Shown here piece by piece: positions 11,961 to 58,727 of a stretch of DNA of 64,000 nucleotides (positions are counted from its first letter, which is position 1; each line of letters opens with the position of its first letter). The notes below the pieces were generated by a model. The model was not told the DNA's origin. It ran no database searches and worked only from the letters and a program-made list of their open reading frames with translations. Source of the DNA: Bacteroidota bacterium (GTDB taxonomy: Bacteria > Bacteroidota > Bacteroidia > AKYH767-A > OLB10); contig JADKIC010000002.1 in NCBI GenBank assembly GCA_016721435.1, forward strand, positions 193,212 through 257,211, in the 5' to 3' direction. Made by a program: the position numbers and the translations under genes.

Positions 11961-11977
11961 AATAAATCATAGATAAA

Positions 11978-18863: not shown

Positions 18864-20699
18864 ATGTGTGGAATCGTTGCATATATCGGAAAGCAGGAGG
18901 CTTATCCGATCATCATTAAAGGTCTTCAGCGCCTCGAATACAGAGGTTATGATAGTGCCGGAGTTGCGCTGTTGAACGGAACGCTGAATGTATATAAAAA
19001 GGCAGGCAAGGTAAGCGAACTGGCAGAATTTGTTAAAGGAAAAAATACTGCAGGTCATGTAGGAATGGGGCATACCCGTTGGGCAACGCATGGAGAACCG
19101 AATGATCGGAACGCACATCCTCATTTTTCTCAATCGAAGGACTTTGCCATTATCCATAATGGTATCATTGAGAATTACGCATCAATCAAAGCCGAGTTGA
19201 TGAAAGAGGGTCACGTTTTTCAAAGTGATACGGATACTGAAGTGTTGATTCATCTGATAGAAGAGATTTATTCAAAAGCCAATGTACCGCTGGAAGAAGC
19301 CGTGCGACTCGCATTGGGTGAAGTGGTGGGTGCCTATGCTATCGTTGTTTTATCGAAGAATGATCCGCAGAAATTAATTGCAGCAAGAAAAGGATCTCCC
19401 ATTGTTGTTGGAATCGGTAAAGATGAATTTTTTGTCGCCTCCGATGCCACACCGATCGTGGAATATACAAAGAATGTGGCTTACCTGAACGATGGAGAAG
19501 TCGCAGTAATTAATAACGGGGAACTAACGGTAAAGACTATAGGCAATGAAGTGAAAGTGCCCTATGTACAGGAACTCGAGTTAAAGTTAGAGGCATTAGA
19601 GAAGGGCGGCTATGAACACTTCATGCTGAAAGAGATTTATGAGCAACCCCGTTCGATCGCCGATAGTATGCGCGGTCGTTTTGACAGCAGGGCAGGACGA
19701 ATCAAATTAGGTGGATTAAGAGAGTTTGAAGCGAGAATTATTAATGCGAAACGCATCATGATTGTCGCATGTGGAACGTCTTGGCATGCCGGTCTGGTGG
19801 CGGAATACCTCATTGAAGACCTCGCCCGGATTCCGGTGGAAGTGGAGTACGCCTCTGAATTCAGATACCGCAACCCGGTTATTTACGAAGATGATGTGGT
19901 GATTGCAATTTCTCAAAGCGGAGAGACCGCCGACACCCTCGCCGCAGTGGAGCTGGCAAAATCAAAAGGCGCTACCATTTTTGGTGTCTGTAATGTGGTA
20001 GGATCAAGTATTCCACGAGCAACTCACGCCGGATCTTATACGCATGCCGGTCCTGAAATTGGAGTAGCGTCTACAAAAGCTTTTACTGCTCAGGTGACTG
20101 TACTCACCCTGCTCGCCTTACAAATTGCACATAAGAAAGGTACAATATCGGAATCCCGATTTCGTGAAATATTGAATGAGCTGGAAAGTATTCCGCAAAA
20201 AGTGGAGAAAGCACTCAAGTCAAATGATGAAGTGAAACTGATTGCAGAACGCTATAAGAACGCAAGGAATTTTCTCTATCTGGGAAGGGGTTACGGCTTC
20301 CCGGTAGCGTTAGAAGGTGCGTTGAAATTGAAGGAGATCTCCTATATTCATGCGGAAGGTTATCCGGCGGCTGAAATGAAACATGGACCCATAGCCTTGA
20401 TTGATGATGAGATGCCGGTAGTGGTAATTGCTACCAAGCATGGCAGCTATGAGAAAGTGGTAAGTAATATTCAGGAAGTAAAGGCAAGGAAAGGTAAAAT
20501 CATCGCAATTGTGACGGAGGGAGATACGGCTGTGAAGGAAATGGCGGATTATGTAATTGAAATTCCCGAAACGGATGAGATTTTGGTACCATTGGTTAGT
20601 GTAATTCCTCTACAATTGTTGGCCTATCATATTGCAGTAATGCGTGGTTGTAATGTAGATCAGCCTAGGAATTTAGCCAAAAGCGTAACAGTAGAATAA
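18864..20699 (+). CDS. glmS: Glutamine--fructose-6-phosphate aminotransferase (isomerising)
   Basis: N-terminal MCGIVAYIG (Ntn amidotransferase Cys2). Two SIS domains. C-terminal ...NLAKSVTVE. 611 aa. Confidence 0.95.
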   Translation: MCGIVAYIGKQEAYPIIIKGLQRLEYRGYDSAGVALLNGTLNVYKKAGKVSELAEFVKGKNTAGHVGMGHTRWATHGEPNDRNAHPHFSQSKDFAIIHNGIIENYASIKAELMKEGHVFQSDTDTEVLIHLIEEIYSKANVPLEEAVRLALGEVVGAYAIVVLSKNDPQKLIAARKGSPIVVGIGKDEFFVASDATPIVEYTKNVAYLNDGEVAVINNGELTVKTIGNEVKVPYVQELELKLEALEKGGYEHFMLKEIYEQPRSIADSMRGRFDSRAGRIKLGGLREFEARIINAKRIMIVACGTSWHAGLVAEYLIEDLARIPVEVEYASEFRYRNPVIYEDDVVIAISQSGETADTLAAVELAKSKGATIFGVCNVVGSSIPRATHAGSYTHAGPEIGVASTKAFTAQVTVLTLLALQIAHKKGTISESRFREILNELESIPQKVEKALKSNDEVKLIAERYKNARNFLYLGRGYGFPVALEGALKLKEISYIHAEGYPAAEMKHGPIALIDDEMPVVVIATKHGSYEKVVSNIQEVKARKGKIIAIVTEGDTAVKEMADYVIEIPETDEILVPLVSVIPLQLLAYHIAVMRGCNVDQPRNLAKSVTVE

Positions 20700-20733: not shown

Positions 20734-21394
20734 ATGAAAAAAAGAATTATTGCCTATTCCTCTGATCACGATTCACTGGGGAATTCTTTTCGAATGAAGC
20801 GGTTTAAGTTTTTGGCGGACAAGCTCGCGAAATTTCCTAAACCTGTAAATATTCTGGATGTAGGAGGAACCCTAAAGTATTGGGAAGCCAGAGGATTTCA
20901 GAATAATAATGATTTTATTATTACCATTATTAATCTTGAATCATCCGATTCGCCTTATACTAATATTAAAATATTAAAAGGAGATGCCACCAACCTCTCC
21001 AATTATAAAGACAAGTCCTTCGATCTGGCTTTCAGTAATTCAGTGATTGAGCATTTGACTGTTTTTGATAAGCAAGTATTGATGGCTAAAGGAAATGATA
21101 CGTACAGGTAAATATTATTTTGTACAAACGCCCAATCGCTACTTCCCGATAGAACCACATTTTCTTTTTCCGTTTTTTCAATTTCTTCCGTACTCTTTAA
21201 AATATTTTATCCTTACTAAAACAAAATTAAGTCGAGGCCGAAAACGCACTCCTCAACGCGCTGAGACTTACATTAAAGAGATTCGTCTCCTTACCACTAA
21301 AGAAATGTTGAAACTGTTTCCTGGATGTAAAGTGTACAATGAAAAAGTGGCCGGATTGATAAAATCAATAACTGTGCATAATTTGCCGGACTAA
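20734..21394 (+). CDS. Class I SAM-dependent methyltransferase (split by an apparent frameshift near 21095-21111)
   Basis: NILDVGGTLKYW (motif I) ... DLAFSNSVIEHL. The second ORF 21095-21394 continues in another frame. Confidence 0.5.
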
Positions 21395-21415
21395 TAACCT
21401 GTGCAAGAGTATAAG

Positions 21416-22587
21416 TTATTTTAGTATTTTAGAAAAGCGTTCTCCAATAATATCCGGGTTAAATCGCTTTTCTACACTCTTCAATGCAGAATGGCTAATG
21501 GTTTCGCAAAGTGCGGGATCATTAAGGAGTACATTGATTTTTTCGGAGAGCTGCTGAATATTACCTGCCTGAAAAAGCATTCCGTTTTCATTGGTAACAA
21601 CCACTTCGGAATTGGGGGAGAGGTCAGAAGCAATGACCGCTTTGGGAAAACTCATCGCCATCAATAATACGCCACTTTGATAAATGCGTGTGTAAGGAAG
21701 TACAATGACCGTACTTATTGAAAAAAGAAAGTCCCGTTCTTCATCAGTAATAAAACGTATCACCGGAATGACTTTATTTTGGATATTTAATTCACTGATG
21801 GTTTTTTCATATTGTGCCCAACTCCCTTCTCTCACTCTTCCGGCTACAATTAGTTTGTAGTTTCCTTCAGTAATGGCAATCGCACGAAGTAAGGTATCTA
21901 AGCCTTTCGCATTTTTTATCTGACCAAAAAACAAGACTATTTTAACGCCTCTTTTTAGATCATCATAAAGTTGTTCATGAATGGCTTGGGCAGAAACCTT
22001 ATTATTTTTAATAGCAGCTAAGGTGGAAGGATTCTCCTGATAATTTTTAAATAAGTGGATAAAATTTACATGTGGAATAACAACTGTATTCGCTGTGGAG
22101 GAAGGTCGAATGCTTTTTGAAAGTTGTTGCAGACTAAATTCATTGTGAACTACACGGATGTTGGGTAAGTTGTCAATGACCATTTTCCTCACAAAGGGAA
22201 CGGATATTGTATCCAGGCTTTCAATATCATGAACAATTGCACATATTTTGAATCCGAGTAATTTTGCCAATGAAAATGTAACTAAATCAAATACCCCTGC
22301 CGGAAAACATGGAGTATCAGCCACTCTGTTTTTTCCTTTCTGCAAGAAACTAAACTGCGTATGAATCCTGAAATAGTTCCCGCAACAGATTGCAACTTCG
22401 AAGTATTATGATTGTGAAATGCTTGGATAACTTTAATGGGTACACCGTTATCTTTGAAATTGGAATACAAACGAACATTTAATCCGTTTTTGGCAATTCC
22501 TTCCAGCAATAATAAATCATAATGATCCATGCCTGCTTTCTTACCAACAGGATCGATGAGGGCAACACGGTTCACTCTTTGTTCCAA
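21416..22587 (-). CDS. GT-B glycosyltransferase, family 4-like (split by an apparent frameshift near 22282-22345)
   Basis: The C-terminal half carries the GT4-type sugar-nucleotide-binding region (IVLFFGQIKNAKGLDTLL...LPYTRIYQSGVLLMAMSFPKAVIASD). The N-terminal ORF 22282-22587 is in another frame. Confidence 0.65.
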
Positions 22588-22672
22588 AATTTACTTTACA
22601 CTAATTTGAATTTCCGAAATCTATTAATTGAGGATTCAGTTTATTTGCTATTAAGCTTAAAATAATTGACCA

Positions 22673-23823
22673 TCATTTTCCATCCTTCAGTTTCCTTTCC
22701 AACGTATTCAATTTTCCAATTTTTGATTCGCCTTTTCTATCCTTTACATCAAAGTAAGGATCCCAAAAATCAGTATCACATTGGTAGCCATACATCGCCC
22801 AGGGCCATTTGTTTTCCTCAAAAGGTCGATAACATCCTTTAGCCAGATATTTGCGCCATCCGCCCATCTCACGCTTTGAAACTCACCTACGAAAATAAGG
22901 TTTCCTGTGGTGGCTTCGAATTTCTTAAGATCCTCAAATTTCTTTCTCATCAGTTCTTTATTCCAAAACACTTTATCTACAAAACCGGGATACTTAAAAC
23001 CTCTGGGTCGCTTTTTAATTCCCTGATGAGAGAAAGGATCCGGCAGATACATATGCGCTCCATAAATTAGTTTATCATCCTTAATGTCATACCCTTCAAA
23101 ATTCTTGTAATTGGTAGGCTTGCCCCATGGGCCGGGTGTGAGAAGAAAATAGCGACGGTTATCATATTTTCTGATCGTAGTTAATGCTCTCTTAAAAAAA
23201 TCTTCAATCTTTTCAGGGCTCTTCATTTTACCACCCGATTCGATGGCCGGCTCCCCAATTACTTCATACGCTGCAAGCTCATCTCCTCTGTTTTGATACC
23301 TTCTGGCAATGATATCCACCATATTGATTGCACTGTCTAAATTCCCTTTGTTATTCCAGAAATCAGGATGTTTATCATCCACAGATGATTTAGGATCCAG
23401 AATCAGGTTGTTAAAGGCAATCATACACGTAATTCCATTGGCTTTAGCAACATCAAGCATACTATCTGCCCAGATGAGTTCCCTGAAAAATGCTTGCGTG
23501 GGATCCATCTTTTCACGCATGGCTCTTTTGTTACCTTTAATGAAAATGCGTACCAGATTTACATTTATAGATTTCAAATACACCAAATCGGCAGGTACTG
23601 TTTTCTTGGATTCAACCGAAACACCTCTCCAGGGCCAGTTGACGGGTAAATTTTTATTTTGAGGATTCGACTCTTTGTCTCTCCCGGGTTGGTTTTGGGC
23701 AAGTACTTCCTCACCGCTTCCGGTGGCTTTCGTATCTTCCCGATTCGTCTTTTTTGCTTCCTGACTGCAGGAATTTTGGAGGTTCAGCAAACAAAGGCTG
23801 AGGATAAGAATTAATTTAATCAT
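22673..23823 (-). CDS. Secreted GH5-like glycoside hydrolase (signal peptide). The C-terminus continues in another frame near 22744-22870.
   Basis: Signal peptide MIKLILILSLCLLNLQNSCSQ. VIGEPA (acid/base NEP-like) and FVGEFQ (GEF nucleophile) motifs of clan GH-A. The downstream ORF 22673-22867 continues the domain. Confidence 0.5.
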
Positions 23824-23966
23824 GGCTGAATGGTTTAAAATAGATTGCCGTACATTCAATAGCAGGCTCCGTAAAGTTAGTAATTTATTTCTTTGAAAAC
23901 GATGAGCCAATAGTAAACGGGGACCAATGACCGGAAATCGCCTTCTAGTATGCTGAAAAATGTACT

Positions 23967-25250
23967 TTATTCGCCAGTTTGTACCAACGTATCATTTCGA
24001 TAGGGGTACACGTAAAATCGGTAATAATACAACACACCCATAAAGAAAGCAGGTGTACCGATAAATTTAATATTGTTAGCGGCACTTTGCATATCAAGGA
24101 AAATGAATAGTAAAGTGTAGATACAGGTCAATACGAACACGTCATTTATTTTTTTCATTTGCAACATCCATAGAAAACAGGCAATGTATGGAATATAGTA
24201 AAATATGGTTCCAATAATTCCAAATACATATAAGTTACCCAGTAGACCAATGTCGGCAGGATAGAAATAGCGATGAAATTGCAAATATCCACCATTCCAC
24301 TGTGAACTTAAGAATCCATTTCCTAGCCATGGATTTTCACTAATACCTTTCAAGGCTACTTCAGCTTCGTAGTAGCGGATATTGGTAGAGTATTCAGTAG
24401 TTTGTTCTCCTGTAAATATGGTAAAAGCGTTACCAAACAATTCCGCATAGTGATCAACAAAGTCAGGAGTGAACAATTGGAGTAAAACAACCACTAATCC
24501 GATAAGAAATACTCCAATAATAGAGTACAATAATATTTTCGTCGCTTTGAGATGAACAAAGTAGAAGAGCATAAGCACGATAAGAACAATGGCAATTTGT
24601 GATCGGTCTTGCCCGTAAACCAGAAAGAAGCCCAGTGAAAGCACTAAGGTGATGAGATGACGGGTCTTGTTATCTTTCAAAAAGGATATGGCACCATAAA
24701 TCAAAAGTCCCGCTGTTGCTCCATTAGGAAACTCATATATCCATCCTTTGTACCCCGTGAGTTTCACGAATTCCGTACCCGAAAATAGGGCAGGGTTTAC
24801 GAAAATGTAAAAAAAGTACATGATGAAGAGAGTTATAAACATGGAGTAAAGGAAATAGTTTTCCATTTTTTCCATACTTAACCATTGCCTCTTAAGAGAA
24901 ACAACAACAAGTACAGCACCTAAAATATAATAATGATAGCGTTGCGAAAGCAAACCATATAGATAAGGTTGATTAAATACAGAATGTGCCTGCGCTGCAT
25001 TTATCAGCGGATAAACCAGTAGTGGTAATAGGATAAGGAATAGGCGGCTTAGCCGTCCGTTTATGAGCTGTTTTGTGGTTTCGTGCAGGAAGACCGCAAC
25101 AAGAAAAAGTAAAAAGAAAAGAGAGAGAATTTCGTTCACTTCTCCCACAGGAATTCTGGAAATAATCCTGAAGCAAACCATAAAATACAGGAAAGAAAAA
25201 AATACAAGTAGTATTTTTTTTGTCAGATGTATTAATTTCCCGGTAACCAT
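23967..25250 (-). CDS. Wzy-like O-antigen/polysaccharide polymerase or O-antigen-ligase-family membrane protein
   Basis: 427 aa with 10 or more TM segments and a large periplasmic loop. Sits in a polysaccharide locus beside Wzx and GT genes. Confidence 0.5.
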   Translation of the reverse strand: MVTGKLIHLTKKILLVFFSFLYFMVCFRIISRIPVGEVNEILSLFFLLFLVAVFLHETTKQLINGRLSRLFLILLPLLVYPLINAAQAHSVFNQPYLYGLLSQRYHYYILGAVLVVVSLKRQWLSMEKMENYFLYSMFITLFIMYFFYIFVNPALFSGTEFVKLTGYKGWIYEFPNGATAGLLIYGAISFLKDNKTRHLITLVLSLGFFLVYGQDRSQIAIVLIVLMLFYFVHLKATKILLYSIIGVFLIGLVVVLLQLFTPDFVDHYAELFGNAFTIFTGEQTTEYSTNIRYYEAEVALKGISENPWLGNGFLSSQWNGGYLQFHRYFYPADIGLLGNLYVFGIIGTIFYYIPYIACFLWMLQMKKINDVFVLTCIYTLLFIFLDMQSAANNIKFIGTPAFFMGVLYYYRFYVYPYRNDTLVQTGE

Positions 25251-25260
25251 TTGCTCGAAA

Positions 25261-26139
25261 TTATTTGCACCAATGTTGTAGGGATTTACCGGTGATCTTT
25301 TCCAGTTCCGGTATTTCAGGCTTGTACAATGCTTTAAGTACTTCTTTTGCTTGCAGCGATAATACCGGCAGGTGCTTTTTGGAAAACAACTTTGATTTTA
25401 TATTTCCTCTCGTTTTTTCATCCAGGAAATAGGCCAGAAATTTTCTGAATTGCTCCTGCTTATACAGCCATCTCACTAATGGTGATTTCGCAGCAGTGGT
25501 CACATTTCTTTGCTCAAGCCCATGACCTGAAACCTCATGTTCTATTTCAAGAAATGCAGAAAGTCTTTTCAACTCTTCCTCCGGACGCGAGACAAGATCA
25601 TCATGGATGAAAATTAAAACCTGATCTTTCGGAAAGACATTTAAGTATCTTTTTATTTGCTCCGTATATTGACTAAGCAGAATATATTGCTGGTAGTACA
25701 GTTTTAAGGAATCGTTTTTTTCTCCTTCTAAAACAATTTTATCAAAAGATTCTTTAACGAGATGCAGACTATAATCCATCAGGTAATGTGAGAATGCCCG
25801 ATGGACCGGGTCGCGAAGTGAAATTATAATTTTTGCTTTCGGATTAAATTGATATATTTTTTCAGCTACTCCCGGATAGAACAAATAGGAAACACTACAC
25901 TCTCCGGATATTTTATTACCTTTTTTTGGTTGGAAAAGCTGAAGATACTCTTCGAGTGTTTTCGGATTTTTCTTTTTATAATATAAGCCTTGAGCTGCAA
26001 TTTGATCACCTGAAAAATAATTGGGCTCTTTATCGCTACTCATACATACCTGGGGATGGCCGGCCAGATAGGCATACAATGCCGTGGTGCCCGCTTTAGG
26101 CGAACCGATAATAAAGAAATCAGGGCTCATTCGCATCAT
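25261..26139 (-). CDS. PAPS-dependent sulfotransferase (paralogue 1 of 4)
   Basis: 5'-PSB motif IIGSPKAGTT. 3'-PB motif ISLRDPVHRAFSHY. Confidence 0.8.
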   Translation of the reverse strand: MMRMSPDFFIIGSPKAGTTALYAYLAGHPQVCMSSDKEPNYFSGDQIAAQGLYYKKKNPKTLEEYLQLFQPKKGNKISGECSVSYLFYPGVAEKIYQFNPKAKIIISLRDPVHRAFSHYLMDYSLHLVKESFDKIVLEGEKNDSLKLYYQQYILLSQYTEQIKRYLNVFPKDQVLIFIHDDLVSRPEEELKRLSAFLEIEHEVSGHGLEQRNVTTAAKSPLVRWLYKQEQFRKFLAYFLDEKTRGNIKSKLFSKKHLPVLSLQAKEVLKALYKPEIPELEKITGKSLQHWCK

Positions 26140-26151
26140 CAGGCAATAAAT

Positions 26152-27120
26152 CTACGCTTTTAACCAATGGGATAGGTCGCGGTTCAATTCCTTACCCAAG
26201 GCTTCGACTTCTGTTTTGAAAAGATCATTAAGCCATTTACGGTCTTCCACACTCATTTTTTCAGGTCCTTCGCTCTTGAAGAAGAGGGACTTTACGGAGT
26301 TCTGCATGGATTTAGGAAGGGCTCTGAAAACTTTTCTTTTTAAACCGGTTTGTGTTAACAGGTGTAAAAATTTAACATTTTTCGGAACCTTTGCTTCATT
26401 GTGTTTTTCTCCAAAGTTGATGTTTATCTCAGGATCCAGGTCAAGAAAATCGAAAACATCTCTGACGACCTTAGGAGTATTTGCTTTAAGGTCATCAAAA
26501 ACCAGAATTTTCAATTGCTCCGGTGAAAAGAGTTCTTTGTATCTTTTAATCTGATTGGAGTACATGCCTAATTCTATGTACAGATGAGATTTACCCCAGC
26601 CCTTTTGCGGTTTTGCCATATCCGCTTCCAGTTCTTTCCGGAAAGGAAGGATCGCTCTTCCGTCACGTATATTGGCTAAATAATGAGAGTAGGCTCTGTC
26701 GGCAGGATTCCGGAGGATGGCGATGAGTTTTACCCCCGGTAATGTTGATTTAATATTTTTTGCAGCGACTTCACTGTAAAGATAAGAGTTGCTGATTTCG
26801 CCAATACGTTTTTTTCCTGCTGCAAATTTGAACAACAGCTTGTAATCTTCCTCTGACTGAACATATGCTCCCCATTGATCCTCCTTCATGTCACCACGGA
26901 CATATTTATAAACATCAAGATTTTTTGCTTTTTCGTGAATTTTATATTCAGGACTGAATTCTTCCGGATGAATATCTTTGGAGAAGTGATTTGGTTCCTT
27001 AATAGGACTCATGTACACATCTCTATGTTGTTTCAGATAATGGTAGATAGAAGTAGTACCACATTTAGCAGCGCCAATCACCAAAAAGTTAGGTAGTATA
27101 TTTGTTTTTATTTCAGCCAT
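26152..27120 (-). CDS. PAPS-dependent sulfotransferase (paralogue 2 of 4)
   Basis: VIGAAKCGTTSIYHY. ILRNPADRAYSHY. Confidence 0.8.
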   Translation of the reverse strand: MAEIKTNILPNFLVIGAAKCGTTSIYHYLKQHRDVYMSPIKEPNHFSKDIHPEEFSPEYKIHEKAKNLDVYKYVRGDMKEDQWGAYVQSEEDYKLLFKFAAGKKRIGEISNSYLYSEVAAKNIKSTLPGVKLIAILRNPADRAYSHYLANIRDGRAILPFRKELEADMAKPQKGWGKSHLYIELGMYSNQIKRYKELFSPEQLKILVFDDLKANTPKVVRDVFDFLDLDPEININFGEKHNEAKVPKNVKFLHLLTQTGLKRKVFRALPKSMQNSVKSLFFKSEGPEKMSVEDRKWLNDLFKTEVEALGKELNRDLSHWLKA

Positions 27121-28061
27121 TCGTCAAGATTTCTGTTTATTAATTTGGACAATCGTAATACATCATCCTTCAATAGATTTTTTATTTCTTTCTTTGTTTC
27201 CTCATCTGATTTATTGCTTTCCGGTTTTTTATAGAGGAGGTGTAATATTAATTTTTTCAGTGGAGAATGTTCAAGAAAATTTCTAGCCTTCACCCGGATG
27301 AAATCCGATTTTAAGAGGTGAGAAATCATTTTGTTTTTCGGAACTGTAGATTCATTTTTAAAATCAGCTTCGTGGGGAATGAAATCATTGCTAACGCCGA
27401 GAAAATCGAATAGTTTTATCAATGTCGCGGATTTATCCTGATACAAATCCTTTTGAAGAAGTACAAGTATATTGTTTGGAGGAAATGTATCGAAGTATCT
27501 TTTGACCTGATTGTAATATTGACCCAGTTCCAAATAGAGAGAACTGGCTCCCCAACCCTTTGGAGTTGTAGTACGATCCTTTTCCAGTGCGACTTTAAAA
27601 CTATCTTGTGTAAAACCTAATTTAAGATCCATCAGGTAATGAGAATAGGCTCTTCCGGAAGGTTCACGAAGTATGATGATTATTTTCGAATTTTCGTTAA
27701 ATTTAAATATTTCCTGAGCAGCAGTTTCAGAATAAAGATAGGAAGGACTGGCTTCACCTTTGACCTGACCGGAACCTGCCTGCGAAAATAGCTGCAGGTA
27801 TTGTTCTTTATTCCTGATATAGGCACGATGAATCACCCTCTTCATTCCATCTTTAAAAAACTGATCGATGTTTTCAGCTTTGATCCTGTTCTTCACACTT
27901 TGACGAAGATTTTCTAAAATGATATCAGTGGAAAAAAAATTCGGCTCCTTGATCGGAGACATATAAATATCCGGATGCTGCCGCAGGTAATGGTAAAGCG
28001 CCGTCGTTCCGGACTTCGCAGCGCCAACAATAAAAAAATCCGGTTTATTTGAAGAGGTCAT
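27108..28061 (-). CDS. PAPS-dependent sulfotransferase (paralogue 3 of 4)
   Basis: IVGAAKSGTTALYHY. ILREPSGRAYSHY. Confidence 0.8.
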   Translation of the reverse strand: MTSSNKPDFFIVGAAKSGTTALYHYLRQHPDIYMSPIKEPNFFSTDIILENLRQSVKNRIKAENIDQFFKDGMKRVIHRAYIRNKEQYLQLFSQAGSGQVKGEASPSYLYSETAAQEIFKFNENSKIIIILREPSGRAYSHYLMDLKLGFTQDSFKVALEKDRTTTPKGWGASSLYLELGQYYNQVKRYFDTFPPNNILVLLQKDLYQDKSATLIKLFDFLGVSNDFIPHEADFKNESTVPKNKMISHLLKSDFIRVKARNFLEHSPLKKLILHLLYKKPESNKSDEETKKEIKNLLKDDVLRLSKLINRNLDEWLK

Positions 28062-28064
28062 GTG

Positions 28065-28970
28065 TTATTTTAACCAAAGCGATAAATCCCGCTGAATAAG
28101 TTGTTGCGTTTTGATAATATCTTCTCTGTAAAAATCCTTAAGTTTTTCTTTCAGTTCCGGATCTATGATTAGTTTGTTTTCACCCTGTACAGAGGGCTTC
28201 CTGAATTTGTGCATTATTTTTCTTCTGGTTTTCTCCTCTGTAAAAATGTTAGCGATTGGCTTCAGTAAAGCTTTCACATTTTTATTTTGGAAAATGTATT
28301 TGAACCATAAGTTGTTTTTCTGAGGATCGGAAATATTGTATTTTACAGAAGTATCAGGCGTAAAGGTGTCATTCACCCCGATAAATCGAAACAACTCCTG
28401 CATCGTAGCAACGGGTTGATCGGTTAGGTCTTCCTGTAGTATGACTTTTACCCTGGTAAAATTATTTTGAAATGCAGCAATTCCATCTGCATATAGCCCG
28501 AGTCCTTTGTATTGCCACATAAAATCCCAGTTCAATTCAGCACGATGCGGTTCTTCTTTCAGAGCGGCTTCAAGAGAAAGGTCTTCCTTTTCCAGCCTTA
28601 TAAAATGTTTATACCCGCTAATAAGCCGGGCTACCGGTTGACGTATCACAATGATGATGGGTACATCTCCCAGTGTTTCTTTTATCTGTGGAATAGCTGT
28701 TTTATAGTAATGAAGGTAGCAGGTAGATACTTCGCCTATTGCTCCTCCATCACATTTATGGTAAAGTTGATCATATTGGTCTTTCGTAAAAATAATACGT
28801 GACGGCTCACGTCTTCCGCGGTTATCGTCAGAAGGCTTCTTGTAAAAATCAGCAATAAAGAAGAAAGTTTCCTTCTTAGGGATGCATACTTCCGGATGTT
28901 GTTCCAGATAATAGAACAAGGAAGTTGTTCCGCATTTTGCTACACCTGCTACAAGGAAATTAGGTTTCAT
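28065..28970 (-). CDS. PAPS-dependent sulfotransferase (paralogue 4 of 4, most divergent)
   Basis: VAGVAKCGTTSLFYY. VIRQPVARLISGY. Confidence 0.75.
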   Translation of the reverse strand: MKPNFLVAGVAKCGTTSLFYYLEQHPEVCIPKKETFFFIADFYKKPSDDNRGRREPSRIIFTKDQYDQLYHKCDGGAIGEVSTCYLHYYKTAIPQIKETLGDVPIIIVIRQPVARLISGYKHFIRLEKEDLSLEAALKEEPHRAELNWDFMWQYKGLGLYADGIAAFQNNFTRVKVILQEDLTDQPVATMQELFRFIGVNDTFTPDTSVKYNISDPQKNNLWFKYIFQNKNVKALLKPIANIFTEEKTRRKIMHKFRKPSVQGENKLIIDPELKEKLKDFYREDIIKTQQLIQRDLSLWLK

Positions 28971-30308
28971 TATTGATTATTTGTGGGTATATCCTTAGGC
29001 CGGGGAATTCCGGGCAGATAGATGGAGAGAATCCGAACTTTTTGTATACGTAATAAGCACCTCCAAAGTTCTGAATTATTTTGGCTGTTGCAGAGGAGAT
29101 GGCCGCTCCGTAATTCCAAATTCAGGTACCAGCAAAATGTTCATAGTAATACTGGTGATGGCAGTGATCAGAATGATGATGTTGTATTGCCGCTGATGTC
29201 CGGTCATTTGGAGTAAAATGCCTACGGAACCGGTGATTGTACTAAAGAAATTACCAATGGTGAGGATGATTAATGCTGTACCGGCAGAGATGAATTCATC
29301 CCCAAAGAGTGATAAAATCAGTTCGGGAAAGACGATAATAAGTAGTGTAAAAGGTAAAGTGGCATAAAAGAGTAATCGGGTAGAAGTGTAGATGGATCGC
29401 CGAAGTTTGGAGAGATCATTTTTACTATGGAATTCGGCAAATGTTGGTCCTTGAATGGCATTCATGGCCATCAGTACGACAGCTGAAATGGCGGCTATTT
29501 TAAAAGCCGTATCATAAATTCCAACTTCAGCCTCGGTTCGGTAGATTCCTATAACCAAATTGTCTATCCAATTCAGAATAAAAAAAATAGAACCGGTAAT
29601 CATCATCGGCAATGATTCGTTTACCATTTCTTTCCATGAACCGCTACTTTCCGGTAAGAGCGTTTCTGTGGGGTCGGCGCTGAATCTTCTCCAAGCTATC
29701 ACATAAAAAAACAAGACAATTAAAGAGGAAAATAAGTAACCCATCGCAGGACTTATCGACAAGGAAGCATACCAACTAATAAGGATAAAGAGAACATTTA
29801 GAAGAGGGATAATTGCCCGAAACAAGGTAAATCCTATCATGTTTTTCATTCCCCGGAATGCAGAAGCATGAATATTGATGATCACAAAAGGGGCCAGGGC
29901 AAAGCACATCATCCTTAAATGTTGAGCCAGCTGTGGTTTTCCAAAGAGTTGAACCGCGATAAGGTCCGATGTAAAGTACAGGAGTGCAGATAAGAGGAGG
30001 GAACTGAAAGTTGTAATTTTTAAAGCGGTCTGGAATGCTTTTTTTATCTCGTCGGGTCGATTTCCGGCTTTAGCGGCTGCTACCTTCCGTGTAAGTAGAT
30101 TGTCAAGACCAAGTAATCCAAGTATAGAAAGTAATTGTAAAACAGTGAAAGACAAGGTAAAACTTCCCAATACTCCCGGGCCAAGTAAGCGTGCAACAGT
30201 AAAAACAAATAGGTATTGCGTGATGATCCCTCCCACCTTTACCGTAAGAGCGATACCGCTTTTTTTAAGGAGAAAGTTCGTGTCTTTTCGCGTATTCGGT
30301 ATTTTCAT
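28958..30308 (-). CDS. wzx: Wzx-type polysaccharide flippase (MOP superfamily). C-terminus restored across an apparent frameshift near 29080-29100. The main ORF is 29076-30308.
   Basis: 12-TM topology with the GGIITQYLFVFTVARLLGPGVLG N-terminal motif. An alternate frame continues ...AAISSATAKIIQNFGGAYYVYKKF to a stop overlapping the sulfotransferase start. Confidence 0.65.
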
Positions 30309-31036
30309 TTTTCAGAGATGCAAATATCATTTTTTTCAGCCTTGCTTTCTCTGTTACTTATTCATTTCGGCAGGAGATATCAACCAGCACAAATGAAAAA
30401 AGGAGCCGGATAATCAGGCCCCTTTTGGAACAAACGAAAAAATACAACTATCTGATATTTATTATGATAGAAAATTAAGGGCTGGTTTAATCTGCTTTAA
30501 TCGAGGTAGTATTAAAGGATTTTATTCTCTTTTGTTTTTATTAAGCGTTGTTGTAAGAGATGAAATTCAGTTGGCAATAGCGCTTTTTACATTCTTGGAT
30601 TAAGAAACTTTTCCGCAGCTTTACAGAGATGTTTAGTAGTTTTTTAAAGTGATTATAAATTGCAACCTCTGCAAAAATCATATAGTATGATGTCCTAATA
30701 ATTACCTTGATATTAAATTGTGGTAAATAGTTCGAATGATTTTACTTATAAAATTTTCGAAAGTATGTGTTGAATCAACGTCCATAAAGTAGATAGAAAC
30801 AATCATAAAGTAGTACAGCGAACTGTTTACAATAGGCTATTATTTTTTTAACCATCTCTTAATATTCAAGACACAATCCGGTTTTAGTCACATTAAGTTA
30901 ATAGAATGATAATGTTTTAAACTGTACTTTCTACTTGTTGCCCCGTAGTTTTGCCGTTGGATTTTTATGATGGCTCATATTTAATTGTCGTCATACAGCA
31001 ATCTGAAATCTAAACCAACAATTAAAAATAATACAC

Positions 31037-33130: not shown

Positions 33131-33167
33131 TTGTAAGTGTAGAATGGTATAGGTAAAGCAACTTGCA

Positions 33168-34286: not shown

Positions 34287-34497
34287 TAGGATTGAAAATT
34301 AGCTTTTCTGCAATGTTAGGAAAATGTTAATTCAGCCTTCAGGTCTTTTCAATAACGAATTGTTAATCCAAACATAACGTATATACAACCTCATTCCCAT
34401 CTCATTTATTCAATTTTGCCCTTCATGATTTTATATCATCAGAAGGAGTCTGTGATGAATATTATCTAATGTATCGTCTTAACTTAAAAATAGAAGT

Positions 34498-35586: not shown

Positions 35587-35690
35587 TTGAAAGAAATATA
35601 AAATAGATCATATCGATTGTTAATTTATAAAGGACGACAGCTTATCCAAATAGTCCTTTCATCGAACGCTCCTCTCTATTCACTTAGATT

Positions 35691-38759: not shown

Positions 38760-38772
38760 AATAAAAACGAAA

Positions 38773-53241: not shown

Positions 53242-54060
53242 TTACTGAACGATAAACCAGGGATTCAACAATTCACTTTTATTATATACCACGGCAGATT
53301 GATCGTTAGCATTGATGACTGAATAACCTGCACTGAGTGCGATCGCCTGTCCTGCCGCCGTATCCCATTCCATAGTAGGTGCAAAGCGGGGATAGACATC
53401 TGCAGCCCCTTCTGCTACAAGGCAAAGTTTAAGGGAACTTCCTTTTGATATCATTTCAAGGTTGGTGTGCTTTTTCCGGAGTTCGTTTATAAAAGCCGCT
53501 GTTTCATCGCTCATATGTGAACGACTGGCTACTACTGTAAAGGGGCGGTCTGTATTTTTTATCGGCAAACGATGACCCGCTGAAATCAGACGATCAGCAA
53601 TATGCTCCGACTGTATAATATGACTCAGGTATTCATAATCGGCTTCCGCTTTGTAGCTGCCACTTCCCTCGCAACCAAAATAGATGGTATCAATCACAGG
53701 AGCATAAATTACTCCCAAAAGTGGTACTCCATTCACAATAAGCGCAATGTTTACGGTGAACTCGCCATTTCTTTTGATAAATTCCTTAGTACCATCCAAC
53801 GGATCGATCAGCCAGAAAATTTTCCATTTATGGCGTTCCTCAAAGGGAATACTTTTTCCCTCCTCACTCAATAAGGGCAATCCGGACTCCGTCAATAATT
53901 CTACAATCTTATTATGCGATCGCTTATCCGCTTCAGTTAACGGACTTTTATCATCCTTTAATTCTACTTCAAATTCGCGTTTATAAACGTCCTTGATTTC
54001 CTTTCCGGCAAGTACAGCTGCTTTTAATGCAAGCGATAAAAGTTGATTATAATTTTCCAT
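53242..54060 (-). CDS. cysQ: 3'(2'),5'-bisphosphate nucleotidase (PAP phosphatase, inositol-monophosphatase fold)
   Basis: WLIDPLDGTKEF and the VVYNKSEL C-terminal region typical of CysQ. Adjacent to cysN/cysD/cysC. Confidence 0.8.
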   Translation of the reverse strand: MENYNQLLSLALKAAVLAGKEIKDVYKREFEVELKDDKSPLTEADKRSHNKIVELLTESGLPLLSEEGKSIPFEERHKWKIFWLIDPLDGTKEFIKRNGEFTVNIALIVNGVPLLGVIYAPVIDTIYFGCEGSGSYKAEADYEYLSHIIQSEHIADRLISAGHRLPIKNTDRPFTVVASRSHMSDETAAFINELRKKHTNLEMISKGSSLKLCLVAEGAADVYPRFAPTMEWDTAAGQAIALSAGYSVINANDQSAVVYNKSELLNPWFIVQ

Positions 54061-54102: not shown

Positions 54103-55377
54103 TTATACGATCATACCCGCGCCAACGGTTTCATTTGTGGCTTCATCAATGAAAATAATACTGCCTGTATGTCTGTTTTTCCGATAGGAATCAAAGAATA
54201 TCGGAGCCGTCGTTTTTATCTGAATTCTTGCAATGTCATTCATTACAATTTCCTTGTCTTCTTCATCACGATGCAAGGTGTTGATATCAATTTTATAACG
54301 AATGTCTTTAATGATACAACGGGTGTCTTTAGAAGTATGGCGAATGCCGTATTTACCGCCCACCTGTATTTTATCAGGATGTAACCAGCAGACCATCACA
54401 TCAAACTCTTGAGCAATATTTGGAACGTTGTTTTCACGGACAATCATATCACCTCTGCTGATATCTACTTCTTTGTCCAGTGTCATGGTTACGGACATAG
54501 GTGCATAAGCTTCTTCATATTTATCCCCAAAAAGTTCAATGGTTTTGATAACAGCCGACTCCCCTTTAGGTAGAATTTTTACTTTATCACCGGGCTTAAA
54601 GATGCCACTCATGATCCTTCCGGCATAACCTCTGAAGTCATGGTGTTCGGTTTGCTGTGGTCTTACAACATATTGTACCGGAAAACGGCAATCAATATGG
54701 TTCTCATCGCTGCTGATGTGTAAATTTTCGAGCAGATACATCAATGTCGGACCCTGGTACCAGGACATGTTCGATGATTTATCCACCACGTTATCGCCTT
54801 TCAATGCACTAATGGGAAGGAAGTGGACATCTTTAATATCAAGTTTAGAGGAGAGATGTCGAAACTGATCGACGACTTTATCAAAACTCTTTTCGTTAAA
54901 TTCTACCAGATCCATTTTATTTACACAAATAATCAAGTGAGGAATCTGCAGTAAAGAAGCGATAAAGGAATGCCGTATAGTTTGCTCTAAGACACCTTTT
55001 CGGGCATCTACAAGAATGAGTGCAGCGTTGGCGGTAGAAGCACCGGTAACCATATTACGTGTATATTGAATATGTCCGGGTGTATCTGCAATAATAAATT
55101 TTCGCTTGGGAGTTGCAAAGTAGCGGTAGGCCACATCGATAGTAATGCCCTGCTCGCGTTCCGCTTTCAGACCATCCACCAGCAAACTTAGATCTACGTG
55201 CTCAAACCCTCGCTGCTGACTGCGTTGTTCAATGGCTTCCAGCTGATCTTCAAAAATTTGCTTGGAGTCAAAAAGTAACCGGCCAATTAATGTACTTTTT
55301 CCATCATCTACACTTCCTGCTGTCGTAAACCGAAGCAGTTCCATGTTCATATATCCTTCTGTGCTAAAATCACTCAT
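54103..55377 (-). CDS. cysN: Sulfate adenylyltransferase subunit 1 (GTPase)
   Basis: GSVDDGKSTLIGRLL G1 motif. DTPGH. NKMD. Domain order of CysN. Confidence 0.9.
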   Translation of the reverse strand: MSDFSTEGYMNMELLRFTTAGSVDDGKSTLIGRLLFDSKQIFEDQLEAIEQRSQQRGFEHVDLSLLVDGLKAEREQGITIDVAYRYFATPKRKFIIADTPGHIQYTRNMVTGASTANAALILVDARKGVLEQTIRHSFIASLLQIPHLIICVNKMDLVEFNEKSFDKVVDQFRHLSSKLDIKDVHFLPISALKGDNVVDKSSNMSWYQGPTLMYLLENLHISSDENHIDCRFPVQYVVRPQQTEHHDFRGYAGRIMSGIFKPGDKVKILPKGESAVIKTIELFGDKYEEAYAPMSVTMTLDKEVDISRGDMIVRENNVPNIAQEFDVMVCWLHPDKIQVGGKYGIRHTSKDTRCIIKDIRYKIDINTLHRDEEDKEIVMNDIARIQIKTTAPIFFDSYRKNRHTGSIIFIDEATNETVGAGMIV

Positions 55378-55434: not shown

Positions 55435-56335
55435 TTAAAAATAACCGGCTTTTTTACGATCTTCCATTGCCGTTTCACTCCGTTTATCGTCAGCTCTTGT
55501 TCCTCTTTCAGTGGTTTTGCTGGCGGCGACCTCGTCAATGATTTCGGAGAGACTTGATGCAGGTGATAATACGGCTCCTGTGCAGGTCATGTCTCCTATG
55601 GTTCTGAAGCGAACGGTCATTTCTTCAATCGTTTCGTTATCGCGTACCGTTATAAAGTCAGACATAGCGAGTAGCATACCTCCTCTGTCAACAACATTTC
55701 TTCTATGCGAAAAATAGAGATTAGGAATGGCAATATCTTCCAGAGCGATGTACATCCATACGTCCATTTCGGTCCAGTTACTCAGCGGGAAAATGCGAAA
55801 GTGTTCGCCCATTTGTTTTTTACCATTGAGCAGCATCCAAAGTTCAGGACGTTGATTTTTCGGATCCCACTGACCAAATTCATCCCGATGAGAAAAGAAA
55901 CGTTCCTTCGCTCTTGCTTTTTCCTCATCTCTTCGTGCTCCGCCCATGGCTGCATCCACTTTTAATTCTTCCAGTGCATCCAGTAAGGTGACAGTCTGTA
56001 GCATATTCCGGCTGGCATTGGGTCCTTTTCTTTAGCACGTCCTCGTTGATCGAGTCCTGTACATTTCGAACGATGAGTGTTGCGCCAATTTTCGCAACAA
56101 GTTCATCCCGGAAACTAATGGTTTCAGGAAAATTATGTCCGGTATCAATGTGAAGCAATGGAAACGGAATACGGGCAGGGTAAAAGGCTTTGCGGGCCAG
56201 ATGAGTCATGACAATAGAGTCCTTCCCTCCGGAAAATAACATCGCCGGGCGCTCAAATTGTGATGCGGCTTCCCGTATGATATAGATGGCTTCTGCTTCC
56301 AGTTCACGCAGATGGTTTAAATGATAGAGAATCAT
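55435..56335 (-). CDS. cysD: Sulfate adenylyltransferase subunit 2 (PAPS-reductase-fold). Apparent frameshift near 55925-56004.
   Basis: [21 protein letters not shown]-loop in ORF 55925-56335. The C-terminal half lies in ORF 55435-56004. Confidence 0.85.
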
Positions 56336-56338: not shown

Positions 56339-56937
56339 TTATATTGATTTAATTCTGTTTAACGTAAAGTTGAGTATTTGGTTCGTGCAGGTTTCCAGGT
56401 CATCCTTATCGGTATGTACTGTTATTTCTGCATGTTCCGGGGCTTCGAAGGGAGAGGAGATGCCGGTGAAGTCCGGAATTTCTCCGCGGCGTGCTTTGCA
56501 TAGAGACCTTTCACATCTCTTTGTTCACATACTTCCAAAGGACAATCCACAAAAATTTCCGTAAACTCTCCTTCAGGAAGCAGTTGTCGTACCCTGTCGC
56601 GATCCTCCTTAAAAGGGGAAATAAAGGCCGTCAAAACAATGATACCGGCGTCAATGAATAATCGGGCTACTTCGCCGATGCGACGGATGTTTTCTTTCCG
56701 TCCTTCTTCACTGAAATCGATATTGCTGTTCAATCCATGACGAATATTATCTCCGTCCAATAAATAAGTTTTGTAACCTTTTACGTGCAATTCCTGTTCA
56801 ACACGGTCGGCCAATGTAGATTTTCCGGAACCACTAAGTCCGGTGAACCACAATAGCAAGGGCTTTTGTTGTAACAACGTTTGCCTGTCATCACGTGTGA
56901 TTTTATACTGCTGACGAACGATATGACTGCTTTTCAT
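56339..56937 (-). CDS. cysC: Adenylyl-sulfate (APS) kinase. C-terminus restored across an A3-to-A4 homopolymer deletion near 56470.
   Basis: LLWFTGLSGSGKSTLA P-loop. Corrected tail ...[56 protein letters not shown]. Confidence 0.85.
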
Positions 56938-56947: not shown

Positions 56948-58727
56948 TCATATAAGGTTATACCATGAAGCGATCCCGAAGATGGTACAGGCCATGTAAA
57001 TGAAGGTAGGTATTATTCCAAATTTAATATAGTCAATAAATTTATAACCGCCGGGTCCAAATACCATCAAATTGGTTTGATAACCGAATGGAGTAATAAA
57101 ATCGGCTGAACTGGCAAACGCAATCGTCAGAAGAAAGGGATTGAAATCCTGAATCCCTAATTGCTGACCGGTGGCAAGTGCAATCGGAAAGGTGATCGCA
57201 ACTGCTGCAGCGTTGGTAACAAACATGGTCAGAATATTTGTAATCAGATAGAGTCCAAGTAAGATGCCCATTGTCGGATGCAATGTTGCCGTTAAGTTGA
57301 TTACTTTATTGGCAAAAAGCTGATCAGCGCCCGAGTTAGAAATGGCTTTGCCAACTCCAATGGCCAGGGCAAGCATGACCATCAATTCAAGGTCAAGTGA
57401 TTTTTTTACATCCTCAACAGTAAGCGAGCCGATGATAGCTAAACCGCCGGTGATAAGGAAGAGTGACATAAACAAACTCACCATGTTGGTTGCTTCAAGA
57501 ATAAAAGCACCTAGAATAGCCAGCAACAACCATTTGATGATACTCTTGTGAGCATGATTGATTTCCTTCTTTTGAGACCAGGATAAGATCCCGATTTTGC
57601 TCTGATCGTCTTCTGAATTGCTTACCCGCTACTACCAATAAGAGGTCGCCGTTCCTTAATTCAATTTCACCAACTTTTCCACTGATCTTTTCTCCATCAC
57701 GGTTTACAGCAATAATACCGGCGTCAAAAGTTTCACGAAAATTGGTTTTGTTGATGGGTTTATTAATCAAGGATGAATTGGGTGCTACGATGACTTCAAT
57801 AATCTCCACTTTGCCATCCATCGGATATTCTGAATAATCGGCATGGATTAATTCCGTTTGATTATTCAACAAATCAATGACAGTATCCGTTTCACCTGCA
57901 AAAATTAAAACATCATCGGTTTGAATGATCTCCTTGGGGGAGACCGGTGCTATGGTTTTCTGACCCCTGATGATTTCTACAACATAGAGTCCACGCAGTT
58001 GACGAAGTTTATTGTCATCGAGCGATTTTCCCACATAGGTAGAGGTAGAGGGAACTTTGGTTTCAATCAAATATTCTCTAACGTGTTCTTTGAATTCTGT
58101 GAGGGCATCAGTGCGGTTGGTTAGAAATTTATTACTGAAAAATGTAATGTACAACACCAGAATGATCATTATGGGCAATCCAATTGGTGTGAATGAAAAC
58201 ATATTTAATGGTTGTAGCCCTGCATCCGTAGCGAGTCCACTTACAACTAAATTAGTGGAGGTGCCAATCAAAGTCACCGTCCCTCCAATGATCGCCGCCA
58301 TGGAAAGGGGCATGAGCACTTTAGAAGGACTGATTTTTTTTCGCTTTGCCCATTCATACACATAAGGGATCATCAATGCGACAAGCGGTATGTTGTTAAC
58401 AAAGGCGGATAGACTGGCTACTGAAGTGCTCATTCTGAAAAGAAAGGCCCGATAGGATAAACCGGGTTTGAATAAGCGGTAGATAGAATAATCCAATGCG
58501 GCAGATCGTTTAATGACATCGCTGATAATCAATAAAAGAAAAATGACAGCAATCTGTTCATTCGCGAAACCACTCAATGCCTCCTTTGGGTTTATGATAT
58601 GAGTGGCCATTAAAACCGTAATTGCAAGAACAAATACCATCACCGGTTTCACAACTTCCTTATAAAGTGCTACTACCATGCCCAGAATGACCAGGCTGAC
58701 AATTAGTATTTGCGCATTTTCAAACAT
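56948..58727 (-). CDS. SLC13/DASS-family anion (sulfate) symporter with central TrkA_C (RCK_C) domains. Apparent frameshift near 57495-57530.
   Basis: Two ORFs (57495-58727 and 56948-57529). Membrane repeats flank two cytoplasmic domains (...VEIIRGQKTIAPVSP..., ...VEIIEVIVAPNSSLINKPI...). First gene of the cys operon. Confidence 0.7.

Follow-up and report, generated by a model that had tools for sequence, protein, structure and literature searches.

Sulfated polysaccharides are known in animals and algae and have been characterised in a handful of bacterial genera (PMC11625862, PMC8205485). One of the bacterial products, synechan, is encoded by the xss cluster on plasmid pSYSM of Synechocystis sp. 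PCC 6803, a cluster demonstrated both genetically and chemically, and the model proposed for it places sulfation on a lipid-linked repeat unit (PMC8205485). The capsule clusters of Vibrio sp. KMM 8419 and Cobetia marina KMM 1449 also yield products that are sulfated according to nuclear magnetic resonance (PMC11641403, PMC11766843). The presence of genes for 3'-phosphoadenosine 5'-phosphosulfate (PAPS) together with sulfotransferase genes in a polysaccharide cluster is considered a hallmark of sulfated polysaccharide synthesis (PMC11641403). Here we describe a locus at positions 20734–30308 of a 64,000-nucleotide stretch of a Bacteroidota metagenome-assembled genome (MAG; contig JADKIC010000002.1), the whole stretch being referred to below as the window. 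In this locus, four tandem sulfotransferase genes (ST1–ST4) lie between the genes of a Wzx flippase and a Wzy_C-domain membrane protein. Judging by its gene content, the locus is likely to encode the core steps by which a sulfated polysaccharide, surface-bound or extracellular, is made with PAPS as the sulfate donor. The hallmark combination of PAPS and sulfotransferase genes is found here as well, the two gene sets being adjacent in three related loci (L088, L086, and L018) and lying on the same strand, 23 kb apart, in the window.

In its logic, the xss cluster is the characterised system nearest to the window operon: like it, xss is of the Wzx/Wzy type, with sulfotransferases among the assembly genes. 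It encodes two sulfotransferases, eight glycosyltransferases, its own priming transferase, a polysaccharide co-polymerase (PCP), and the regulators XssQ, XssR, and XssS (PMC8205485), whereas the window operon encodes four sulfotransferases, one glycosyltransferase, and a GH5 hydrolase and has a linked PAPS cassette. No PAPS genes occur in the approximately 10–15 kb annotated on either side of xss on pSYSM, and the two systems belong to different phyla. XssA, fetched from pSYSM, is a homologue of the window enzymes, with ST4 as its best match (25% identity, E 2e-25) and a shared KEPNFF block, whereas XssE is barely related to them (E about 1e-5). A tblastn search against plasmids returned distant sulfotransferases only, at no more than 36% identity, and pSYSM was absent among the 40 records listed.

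The clusters of Vibrio and Cobetia resemble the window module in holding cysD, cysN, cysC, and sulfotransferase genes, and that of Cobetia also holds cysQ and a sulfate permease, like the window cassette (PMC11641403, PMC11766843). However, these gammaproteobacterial clusters comprise 70–80 genes with scattered single sulfotransferases and export through an ATP-binding cassette (Kps) transporter, whereas the window locus is compact, of the Wzx/Wzy type, and carries its sulfotransferases in tandem. No published description of the Bacteroidota module was found in the literature searched, which was itself incomplete. The mechanism is conventional, and no new mechanism is revealed; the distinctive features are the sulfotransferase-dominated composition and, in relatives, the physically fused PAPS module.

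The operon and its four sulfotransferases

The locus consists of a single minus-strand operon and a convergent plus-strand methyltransferase gene (Table 1). The order of the operon is wzx, ST1, ST2, ST3, ST4, the gene of the Wzy_C membrane protein, the gene of a GH5 lipoprotein, and the gene of a GT4 glycosyltransferase. The junctions from wzx through wzy measure −1, +3, −13, +12, and +10 nucleotides; the sulfotransferase genes overlap or abut all the way from wzx to wzy, and the operon is therefore single and translationally packed. A preliminary description made from the letters of this DNA had reported four consecutive, same-strand sulfotransferase genes with abutting or overlapping ends, and both the Pfam matches and the junctions (in the −1 to −13/+12 nucleotide range) bear this out. 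The gathering scores of Pfam served as the threshold for domain assignments, and all assignments in the locus lie above them, which confirms the GT4, S-adenosyl methionine (SAM) methyltransferase, GH5, Wzx, and Wzy_C domains named in that description. The end of wzx, placed there at 28958, is corrected to 28970 by indel mapping.

All four sulfotransferase open reading frames (ORFs) match Sulfotransfer_1 and Sulfotransfer_3 of Pfam above the gathering scores (E 1e-19 to 6e-9). In an alignment of the four window copies (A1), the 5'-phosphosulfate-binding (5'-PSB) motif reads PKAGTT in ST4, AKCGTT in ST3, AKSGTT in ST2, and AKCGTT in ST1, and the 3'-phosphate-binding (3'-PB) motif reads RDPVHRAFS, RNPADRAYS, REPSGRAYS, and RQPVARLIS in the same order. 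The PAPS motifs proposed for each copy are thus present in all four, and a check of this alignment for missing PAPS-binding residues came out negative. Invariant among the four paralogues are K-x-G-T-T at the end of strand 1, K-E about 20 residues further on, and R-x-P-x-x-R-x-x-S; three copies carry the block KEPN(Y/H/F)FS, in place of which the remaining one reads KETFFFI. In a larger alignment of 53 sequences that includes database homologues (A2), G13, K16, G18, T19, T20, K38, E39, R132, and R137 are invariant, and P134 and S140 nearly so. ST4 is shorter by approximately 25 residues in the variable region past the catalytic Glu (A1). Pairwise identity among the four copies is 29–40%, and ST1 is the most diverged, as had been noticed before. 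A signal peptide or hydrophobic segment was found in none of the four, and the PSB loop lies inside the first 20 residues; ST1–ST4 are predicted to be soluble cytoplasmic enzymes. In the NCBI records, the proteins bear the name 'MAG: sulfotransferase [Bacteroidetes bacterium]'.

By sequence, the solved protein closest to ST2 is the bacterial 3RNL (E 1.5e-36), a structural-genomics entry from Alicyclobacillus acidocaldarius that belongs to the same bacterial family and whose PDB name gives neither function nor acceptor. The same PDB sequence search matched heparan sulfate (HS) 3-OST-3 (E 1.6e-14) and also NDST1. KEPNFFS of ST2 aligns over AEPHFFD of 3-OST-3 with coinciding Glu positions, and REPSGRAYSHY aligns over RDPVTRAISDY, the 3'-PB motif falling on VRDPVTRAISDY. 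The first Glu of AEPHFFD, Glu184 of 3-OST-3, is taken here to be the catalytic base. ST2, the copy that was modelled, gave an AlphaFold2 (AF2) model with a pLDDT of 93.3 and a pTM of 0.91. In a Foldseek search of the PDB with this model, 3RNL ranked first (TM 0.87 on the target), followed by the NDST1 sulfotransferase domain and 3-OST-1/3/5, and the sulfotransferase fold was found in all 50 matches listed, with a probability of 1.00.

The E-values of tyrosylprotein, cytosolic, and polyketide sulfotransferases in the Foldseek search were several orders of magnitude weaker than those of the HS enzymes. An assignment as tyrosylprotein or cytosolic small-molecule sulfotransferases was ruled out, as these are structurally farther from the ST2 model than the HS enzymes are. 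NodH, NoeE, or another NCBIfam equivalog was likewise ruled out, as no score came near the cut-offs (17 bits for NoeE versus 500). From motifs and the modelled fold of ST2, ST1–ST4 are assigned to the PAPS-type carbohydrate sulfotransferases, in the HS NST/3-OST-like branch. The animal HS sulfotransferases (NDST domain and 3-OST-1/3/5) are the closest characterised structures and have the 5'-PSB, the 3'-PB, and the position of the catalytic Glu in common with the window enzymes. However, their identity to ST2 is 15–22%, and they are Golgi-lumenal enzymes acting on the finished polymer, whereas the window enzymes are predicted to be cytoplasmic. A heparosan-type copolymerase, UDP-glucose dehydrogenase, C5-epimerase, and N-deacetylase were all absent from the locus and from the window ORFs scanned, and the locus does not encode glycosaminoglycan synthesis of the animal or heparosan kind.

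The PAPS cassette and the relatives of the module

A full sulfate-activation cassette, missed by the preliminary description, is located in the window at 53242–58727 on the minus strand and encodes an anion symporter, CysC, CysD, CysN, and CysQ (Table 1). The symporter scores below the NCBIfam cut-off for DASS and is 81–88% identical to its L088 orthologue by tblastn, and the intact L088 orthologue of cysD scores 455 bits for CysD (cut-off 195). In L088, the cassette ends 0.5 kb upstream of wzx, and the genes run symporter-cysC-cysD-cysN-cysQ-wzx, four sulfotransferase genes, wzy-GH5-GT4, and then glmS. L086 has the cassette, a phosphoesterase, an MJ1255-like glycosyltransferase, GH1, wzx, two sulfotransferase genes, wzy, GH5, a further sulfotransferase gene, GT4, and glmS. 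The cassette is directly upstream of wzx in L018 also, and cysQ lies just upstream of wzx in L010, L013, L014, L015, and L017. The three genes that separate the cassette from wzx in L086 (5067–8423) form an accessory trio (LpxH-like metallophosphoesterase, MJ1255/VC2487-like glycosyltransferase, and GH1 beta-glucosidase) that stands beside cysQ in the window and is absent in L088; the trio accompanies the PAPS cassette in two lineages.

A scan for the module that took a single genome for each species found at least 572 stretches with genes for relatives of the sulfotransferases. In the 80 loci kept, a profile built from the four copies and the proteins encoded next to them served to score every ORF. 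The relatives span Bacteroidota, Cyanobacteria, Alicyclobacillus, Chloroflexota, Actinomycetota, Acidobacteriota, and others. A module in the order CysQ-Wzx-sulfotransferases-Wzy, with GT4 further on, is found in many MAGs of Flavobacteriales, Chitinophagales, and Bacteroidia, with two to six sulfotransferases per locus among the 80 loci: four in L007 (one more by Pfam), L009, and L015, five in L012 and L017, and six in L026. The L017 locus also holds GT2, GT4, MBOAT, and epimerase genes. Four tandem sulfotransferases are a recurrent genomic pattern and not an oddity of this genome. The rarity claimed for such loci was overstated, given the number of relative stretches and the recurrence of three to six sulfotransferases beside Wzx/Wzy in Bacteroidota MAGs.

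Some relatives come from other settings. In a Candidatus Brocadia sp. MAG (L084), an anammox bacterium, two related sulfotransferases lie beside Wzx; sulfated polymers in anammox granules are cited in PMC7356697. The cyanobacterium Gloeocapsopsis (L029) carries three related sulfotransferases within about 8 kb, two of them adjacent. Relatives also occur in Alicyclobacillus (L022, L030, and L034), and in L034 (Alicyclobacillus fructus) the sulfotransferase adjoins cysC.

Proteins of L088 are 73–78% identical to those of the window, and those of L086 about 51%. A neighbour-joining tree and best-hit scoring agree on the orthology of the sulfotransferases. ST1 has a clear orthologue in L088 only and a weaker one in L070, and it is a lineage-restricted addition. 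Positional orthologues of ST2 are found in L088, L086, L007, and L018, those of ST3 in L088, L007, L086, L008, L018, and L023, and those of ST4 in L088, L007, and L008, the ST4 type lying near GT4 in Flavobacteriales loci. The ST3 and ST4 types are the most widespread, ST3 having the broadest conservation of all. In the comparison of the window with L088, the proportion of nonsynonymous differences (pN) is 0.15–0.19 for the four sulfotransferases and that of synonymous differences (pS), which is saturated, 0.77–0.88; all four are under purifying selection. Because of this selection and the positional orthologues, the four sulfotransferases are considered old and separately maintained, and different specificities fit these sequences better than dosage does. 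Three of the copies (ST2–ST4) had been described as clearly duplicated; the paralogy of the four holds, while a recent tandem duplication is ruled out by the 29–40% identity and by positional orthologues for three of the four copies, which makes them ancient paralogues. The L006/L088 contig (CAZHSC010000009.1) is titled 'uncultured Bifidobacterium sp.', yet it is of Bacteroidota type, with BamH/DUF4270 and the same gene order. Its proteins (L006/L088) are 73–97% identical to those of the window, and the taxonomic label of the bin looks wrong.

Proposed pathway and alternative explanations

In the pathway proposed here, sulfate would be imported by the DASS-type symporter, converted to adenosine 5'-phosphosulfate (APS) by CysDN, and then to PAPS by CysC. 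A short sugar repeat unit would be assembled on undecaprenyl phosphate at the inner membrane face, started by a priming transferase from elsewhere and extended by GT4, possibly together with the MJ1255-like glycosyltransferase. ST1–ST4 would each sulfate a different position or sugar of the lipid-linked unit from PAPS, and CysQ would destroy the inhibitory by-product 3'-phosphoadenosine 5'-phosphate (PAP). Wzx would then flip the sulfated unit and the Wzy_C protein would polymerise it, outer-membrane export following. Other exopolysaccharide operons also encode hydrolases, and by analogy with these the GH5 lipoprotein may trim the polymer or set it free. Since PAPS is cytoplasmic only, the enzymes are predicted to be cytoplasmic as well, and they are encoded between flippase and polymerase, sulfation most likely takes place on the undecaprenyl-diphosphate-linked repeat unit before flipping by Wzx. 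The acceptor, the timing before flipping, the assignment of one site to each enzyme, and polymerisation are the parts of this pathway that we infer. The candidate sulfated surface glycan of the preliminary description, with sulfation at several sites or of several substrates, is supported at the level of sequence and gains strength from the PAPS cassette, the fold, and the conserved residues.

Several observations weigh against this pathway. Sulfation is predicted from the genes of an uncultured MAG, and acceptor specificity is not readable from sequence. In this species, approximately 19 kb of opposite-strand genes lie between the PAPS cassette and the operon. The Wzy_C domain is present in ligases as well. 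The core contains a single glycosyltransferase, an unusual number for a heteropolysaccharide of the Wzx/Wzy type. Among the window ORFs of at least 150 amino acids, Pfam detected neither a priming phosphoglycosyltransferase (WbaP/WecA type) nor a Wzc/Wza pair (PCP and outer-membrane polysaccharide export, OPX, proteins) in the 64 kb. As a Wzx/Wzy pathway the locus is incomplete: Wzx, the Wzy_C domain, and GT4 are confirmed, and the priming transferase, Wzc, and Wza are not found in the window. No priming transferase was found between cysQ and glmS in L088 either, and it may be encoded elsewhere. GT4, the sole glycosyltransferase of the operon, lies above no NCBIfam equivalog cut-off, and the L088 core between the PAPS cassette and glmS likewise holds one glycosyltransferase. 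Either more genes are located at other sites, or the pathway builds a very short, heavily sulfated repeat unit.

A module comprising a sulfate symporter, CysC, CysD, CysN, and CysQ, Wzx, two to six HS-type sulfotransferases, Wzy, and a single GT4 could make a repeat of two or three sugars with several sulfates and a heparin-like charge density. Such a product would be a candidate for the 'sulfated glycosaminoglycan-like' material in the extracellular polymeric substances (EPS) of sludge, a proposal that is speculative and, on present evidence, rather doubtful. Sulfated glycosaminoglycan-like polymers have been measured in the EPS of activated, granular, and anammox sludge, and the authors of these studies state that neither producers nor pathways are known and that reference sulfotransferases, used as queries, mostly fail to find candidates (PMC10483923, PMC7356697). 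It is plausible that loci of the kind described here are a genetic basis for the sulfated polymers of the sludge matrix. The MAG itself probably comes from activated sludge; a literature search by its accession returned no paper on the sample. The locus and its relatives provide a testable gene set in uncultured Bacteroidota that covers sulfate import, PAPS synthesis, PAP removal, sulfotransferases, and Wzx/Wzy. If the module does make a short repeat with several sulfates, the four enzymes would be regiospecific polysaccharide sulfotransferases from a phylum without characterised ones, and they would be soluble, cytoplasmic, and usable for enzymatic sulfation; soluble bacterial carbohydrate sulfotransferases of distinct specificity would also be useful for making defined sulfated glycans.

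The Wzy_C protein has at least nine hydrophobic segments, and a PDB sequence search aimed at separating polymerase from ligase gave no matches, nor did NCBIfam. The product may be an unpolymerised sulfated oligosaccharide, which a Wzy_C protein acting as a WaaL/PglL-type ligase would transfer onto lipid A-core, a lipid anchor, or proteins, for instance as an O-glycosylation or anchor glycan of type IX secretion system (T9SS) cargo. The Pfam Wzy_C family includes such ligases, the match is modest (39 bits), the core has a single glycosyltransferase, Wzc and Wza were missing from the window in the scan above, and T9SS cargo genes adjoin the operon in this species. However, in L088, L086, and L007 the operon has no T9SS genes beside it, and Wzx, with about 11 hydrophobic segments, scores 30 bits against an O-glycosylation flippase model with a cut-off of 720. 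A Wzx and Wzy_C pair in a glycosyltransferase-containing operon is, moreover, the usual context of a polymerase. The GH5 protein also argues for a polymer. Its N-terminus, MIKLILILSLCLLNLQNSC, is lipoprotein-like, with a signal that ends in …LLNLQNSC, and GEP and GEF motifs lie at the positions of the two catalytic Glu of GH5 enzymes. Its PDB sequence matches are endoglucanases (E 6e-30; relatives 8B3Y, 8AG9, and 8ANX), and its gene adjoins wzy in the closer relatives. A conserved, exported GH5 beside Wzy, whose nearest solved relatives are endoglucanases, suggests a polymeric substrate and fits a polymeric product. The ligase explanation is considered unlikely, and the Wzy_C protein is probably the repeat-unit polymerase. 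The name Wzy-like polymerase given previously is correct as to the domain, while the Pfam match alone does not separate a polymerase from a WaaL/PglL-type ligase, the domain being common to both.

It is less probable still that the sulfotransferases act on a glycolipid, a lipo-oligosaccharide signal, or a small metabolite, with the Wzx/Wzy genes as incidental neighbours. Characterised bacterial sulfotransferases do include glycolipid and lipo-oligosaccharide enzymes, namely NodH, Stf0, and KpsS (PMC11625862), and the trio with the LpxH-like phosphoesterase, glycosyltransferase, and GH1 accompanies the PAPS cassette. However, the sulfotransferase genes are placed between wzx and wzy with overlapping junctions, and the order Wzx-sulfotransferases-Wzy-GT4 is held across many Bacteroidota species. 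The low NoeE score and the lack of a NodH/NoeE equivalog also speak against such acceptors; the nearest folds are those of polysaccharide-acting HS enzymes, with no glycolipid sulfotransferase among the 50 Foldseek matches listed.

The cysDNC-cysQ cassette might serve assimilatory sulfate reduction only, its linkage to the sulfotransferase operon being coincidental. CysDN and CysC also supply cysteine synthesis in many bacteria, and the cassette is 23 kb from wzx in the window. Against this, cysH, cysI, and cysJ were found neither beside the window cassette nor among the called genes of L086 and L088, and the cassette includes CysQ and a dedicated symporter; therefore, its PAPS appears to be meant for sulfation rather than cysteine synthesis. 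Moreover, at least nine species-level genomes, spread over different groups of Bacteroidota, show this adjacency to wzx, and a purely assimilatory role is very improbable.

Assembly errors, feature coordinates, and flanking genes

In the window, wzx, GH5, GT4, and the methyltransferase gene each have a broken frame, and such breaks in four of the nine locus genes could be read as decay to pseudogenes with no glycan made, a view that hardly survives since all breaks are single-base indels, many of them at homopolymers, dxr, BamH, and the TonB receptor are split alike, same-species assemblies at 99% identity are intact, and the sulfotransferases are under purifying selection. The same locus was found in five other assemblies by exact-protein look-up, the exact ST3 protein being present in five independent assemblies. 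Over 21 kb, the window is 99.3% identical to L001 with 14 single-base indels, many at short homopolymer runs; wzx and GH5 contain two each, GT4 and the methyltransferase gene one each, and ST1–ST4 and wzy none. Two single-base deletions near 29107 and 29028 disrupt the C-terminal frame of wzx, two others lie near the 3' end of GH5, and one deletion lies near 22300 in GT4. All four genes are intact in L001 and L003, where wzx, GH5, GT4, and the methyltransferase gene encode 446, 394, 386, and 219 amino acids, respectively. L004 and L005 also carry them intact up to the ends of their contigs, and wzx and the methyltransferase gene are intact throughout L001–L004. The base-by-base comparison with L001 ruled out the pseudogene reading. 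Elsewhere in the window, breaks of the same kind affect dxr, BamH/DUF4270, a TonB-dependent receptor (in three pieces), cysC, cysD, and the symporter. Because housekeeping genes are split alike and same-species assemblies are intact, the window is judged to come from an unpolished MAG assembly prone to errors, and the locus not to be decaying. Housekeeping and other genes split by indels are found at 5815–6980, 17564–18860, 35691–38759, and other positions of the window.

Table 1. Coordinates of the operon, the PAPS cassette, and associated genes in the window (aa, amino acids; bit scores with cut-offs in brackets)
Feature	Position	Strand	Evidence and remarks
wzx, MOP/PST-family oligosaccharide flippase	28970..30308	−	First gene of operon; Pfam Polysacc_synt 8e-24, Polysacc_synt_3, MatE
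ST1, PAPS-type sulfotransferase, 301 aa	28065..28970	−	Pfam Sulfotransfer_3 3e-13, Sulfotransfer_1 6e-9
ST2, PAPS-type sulfotransferase, 317 aa	27108..28061	−	Pfam, PDB 3RNL match, AF2 model
ST3, PAPS-type sulfotransferase, 322 aa	26152..27120	−	Pfam
ST4, PAPS-type sulfotransferase, 292 aa	25261..26139	−	Pfam Sulfotransfer_3 1e-19
Wzy_C-domain membrane protein, 427 aa	23967..25250	−	Pfam Wzy_C 6e-10, 39 bits
GH5 glycoside hydrolase, exported lipoprotein, 394 aa intact	22641..23823	−	Pfam Cellulase 3e-12
GT4 glycosyltransferase, 386 aa intact	21416..22575	−	Pfam Glycos_transf_1 3e-22
Class I SAM methyltransferase, 219 aa intact	20734..21394	+	Pfam Methyltransf_11 9e-6
glmS	18864-20699		Housekeeping gene beyond the methyltransferase
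DASS/SLC13-type anion (sulfate) symporter with TrkA_C	56948..58727	−	First gene of cassette; Pfam CitMHS, Na_sulph_symp, TrkA_C; frameshifted
cysC, adenylyl-sulfate (APS) kinase	56342..56937	−	NF003013 235 bits (163); Pfam APS_kinase 1e-54; 3' end frameshifted
cysD, sulfate adenylyltransferase small subunit	55435..56335	−	Pfam PAPS_reduct; frameshifted
cysN, sulfate adenylyltransferase GTPase subunit	54103..55377	−	TIGR02034 570 bits (336); NF003478 596 bits (590)
cysQ, 3'(2'),5'-bisphosphate nucleotidase, removes PAP	53242..54060	−	TIGR01331 274 bits (229)
LpxH-like metallophosphoesterase (accessory trio)	51703-52659	−	Pfam, NCBIfam
MJ1255/VC2487-like glycosyltransferase (accessory trio)	50639-51706	−	Pfam, NCBIfam
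GH1 beta-glucosidase (accessory trio)	49267-50619	−	Pfam, NCBIfam

The methyltransferase is accessory to the locus: it was found in this species only, with a weak match in L070, and it is missing beside GT4 in L088, L086, and L007. An Rfam scan of the whole window detected no riboswitches or leaders, and a sigma-70 promoter and terminator scan of the locus, which did not include Bacteroidota promoters, gave counts equal to the shuffled expectation. A terminator-shaped hairpin with a U-run is located at 30396–30426 on the minus strand, approximately 90 nucleotides upstream of the wzx start (fold z-score −1.65), with no co-directional gene within 700 nucleotides upstream. A similar hairpin with a T-run precedes wzx in L007 (about 1230–1270), and the sequence GGTTGATATCTCC, located just downstream, is shared with L088. 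The hairpin may be a leader, an attenuator, or a relic of a cysQ terminator.

Plus-strand genes at 31037–49262 encode T9SS cargo proteins (Por_Secre_tail with Ig_7, Big_7, cohesin, and Fib_succ_major), a TonB-dependent receptor, and a DUF6544 protein. These T9SS and TonB genes also lie beside wzx in the same-species loci L001 to L004 and are not found there in L088 and L086. The PAPS cassette is flanked at 59262–63625 by genes for YceI, a Reg_prop/Y_Y_Y sensor kinase (frameshifted), and a LytTR response regulator, and YceI and a Y_Y_Y histidine kinase flank the cassette in L088 too; the sensor kinase and response regulator are candidate regulators of the module. A cluster at 10983–13448, which encodes an ArsP-type permease, a rhodanese, and a DsbD_2-like membrane protein, is apparently unrelated to the sulfotransferase operon.

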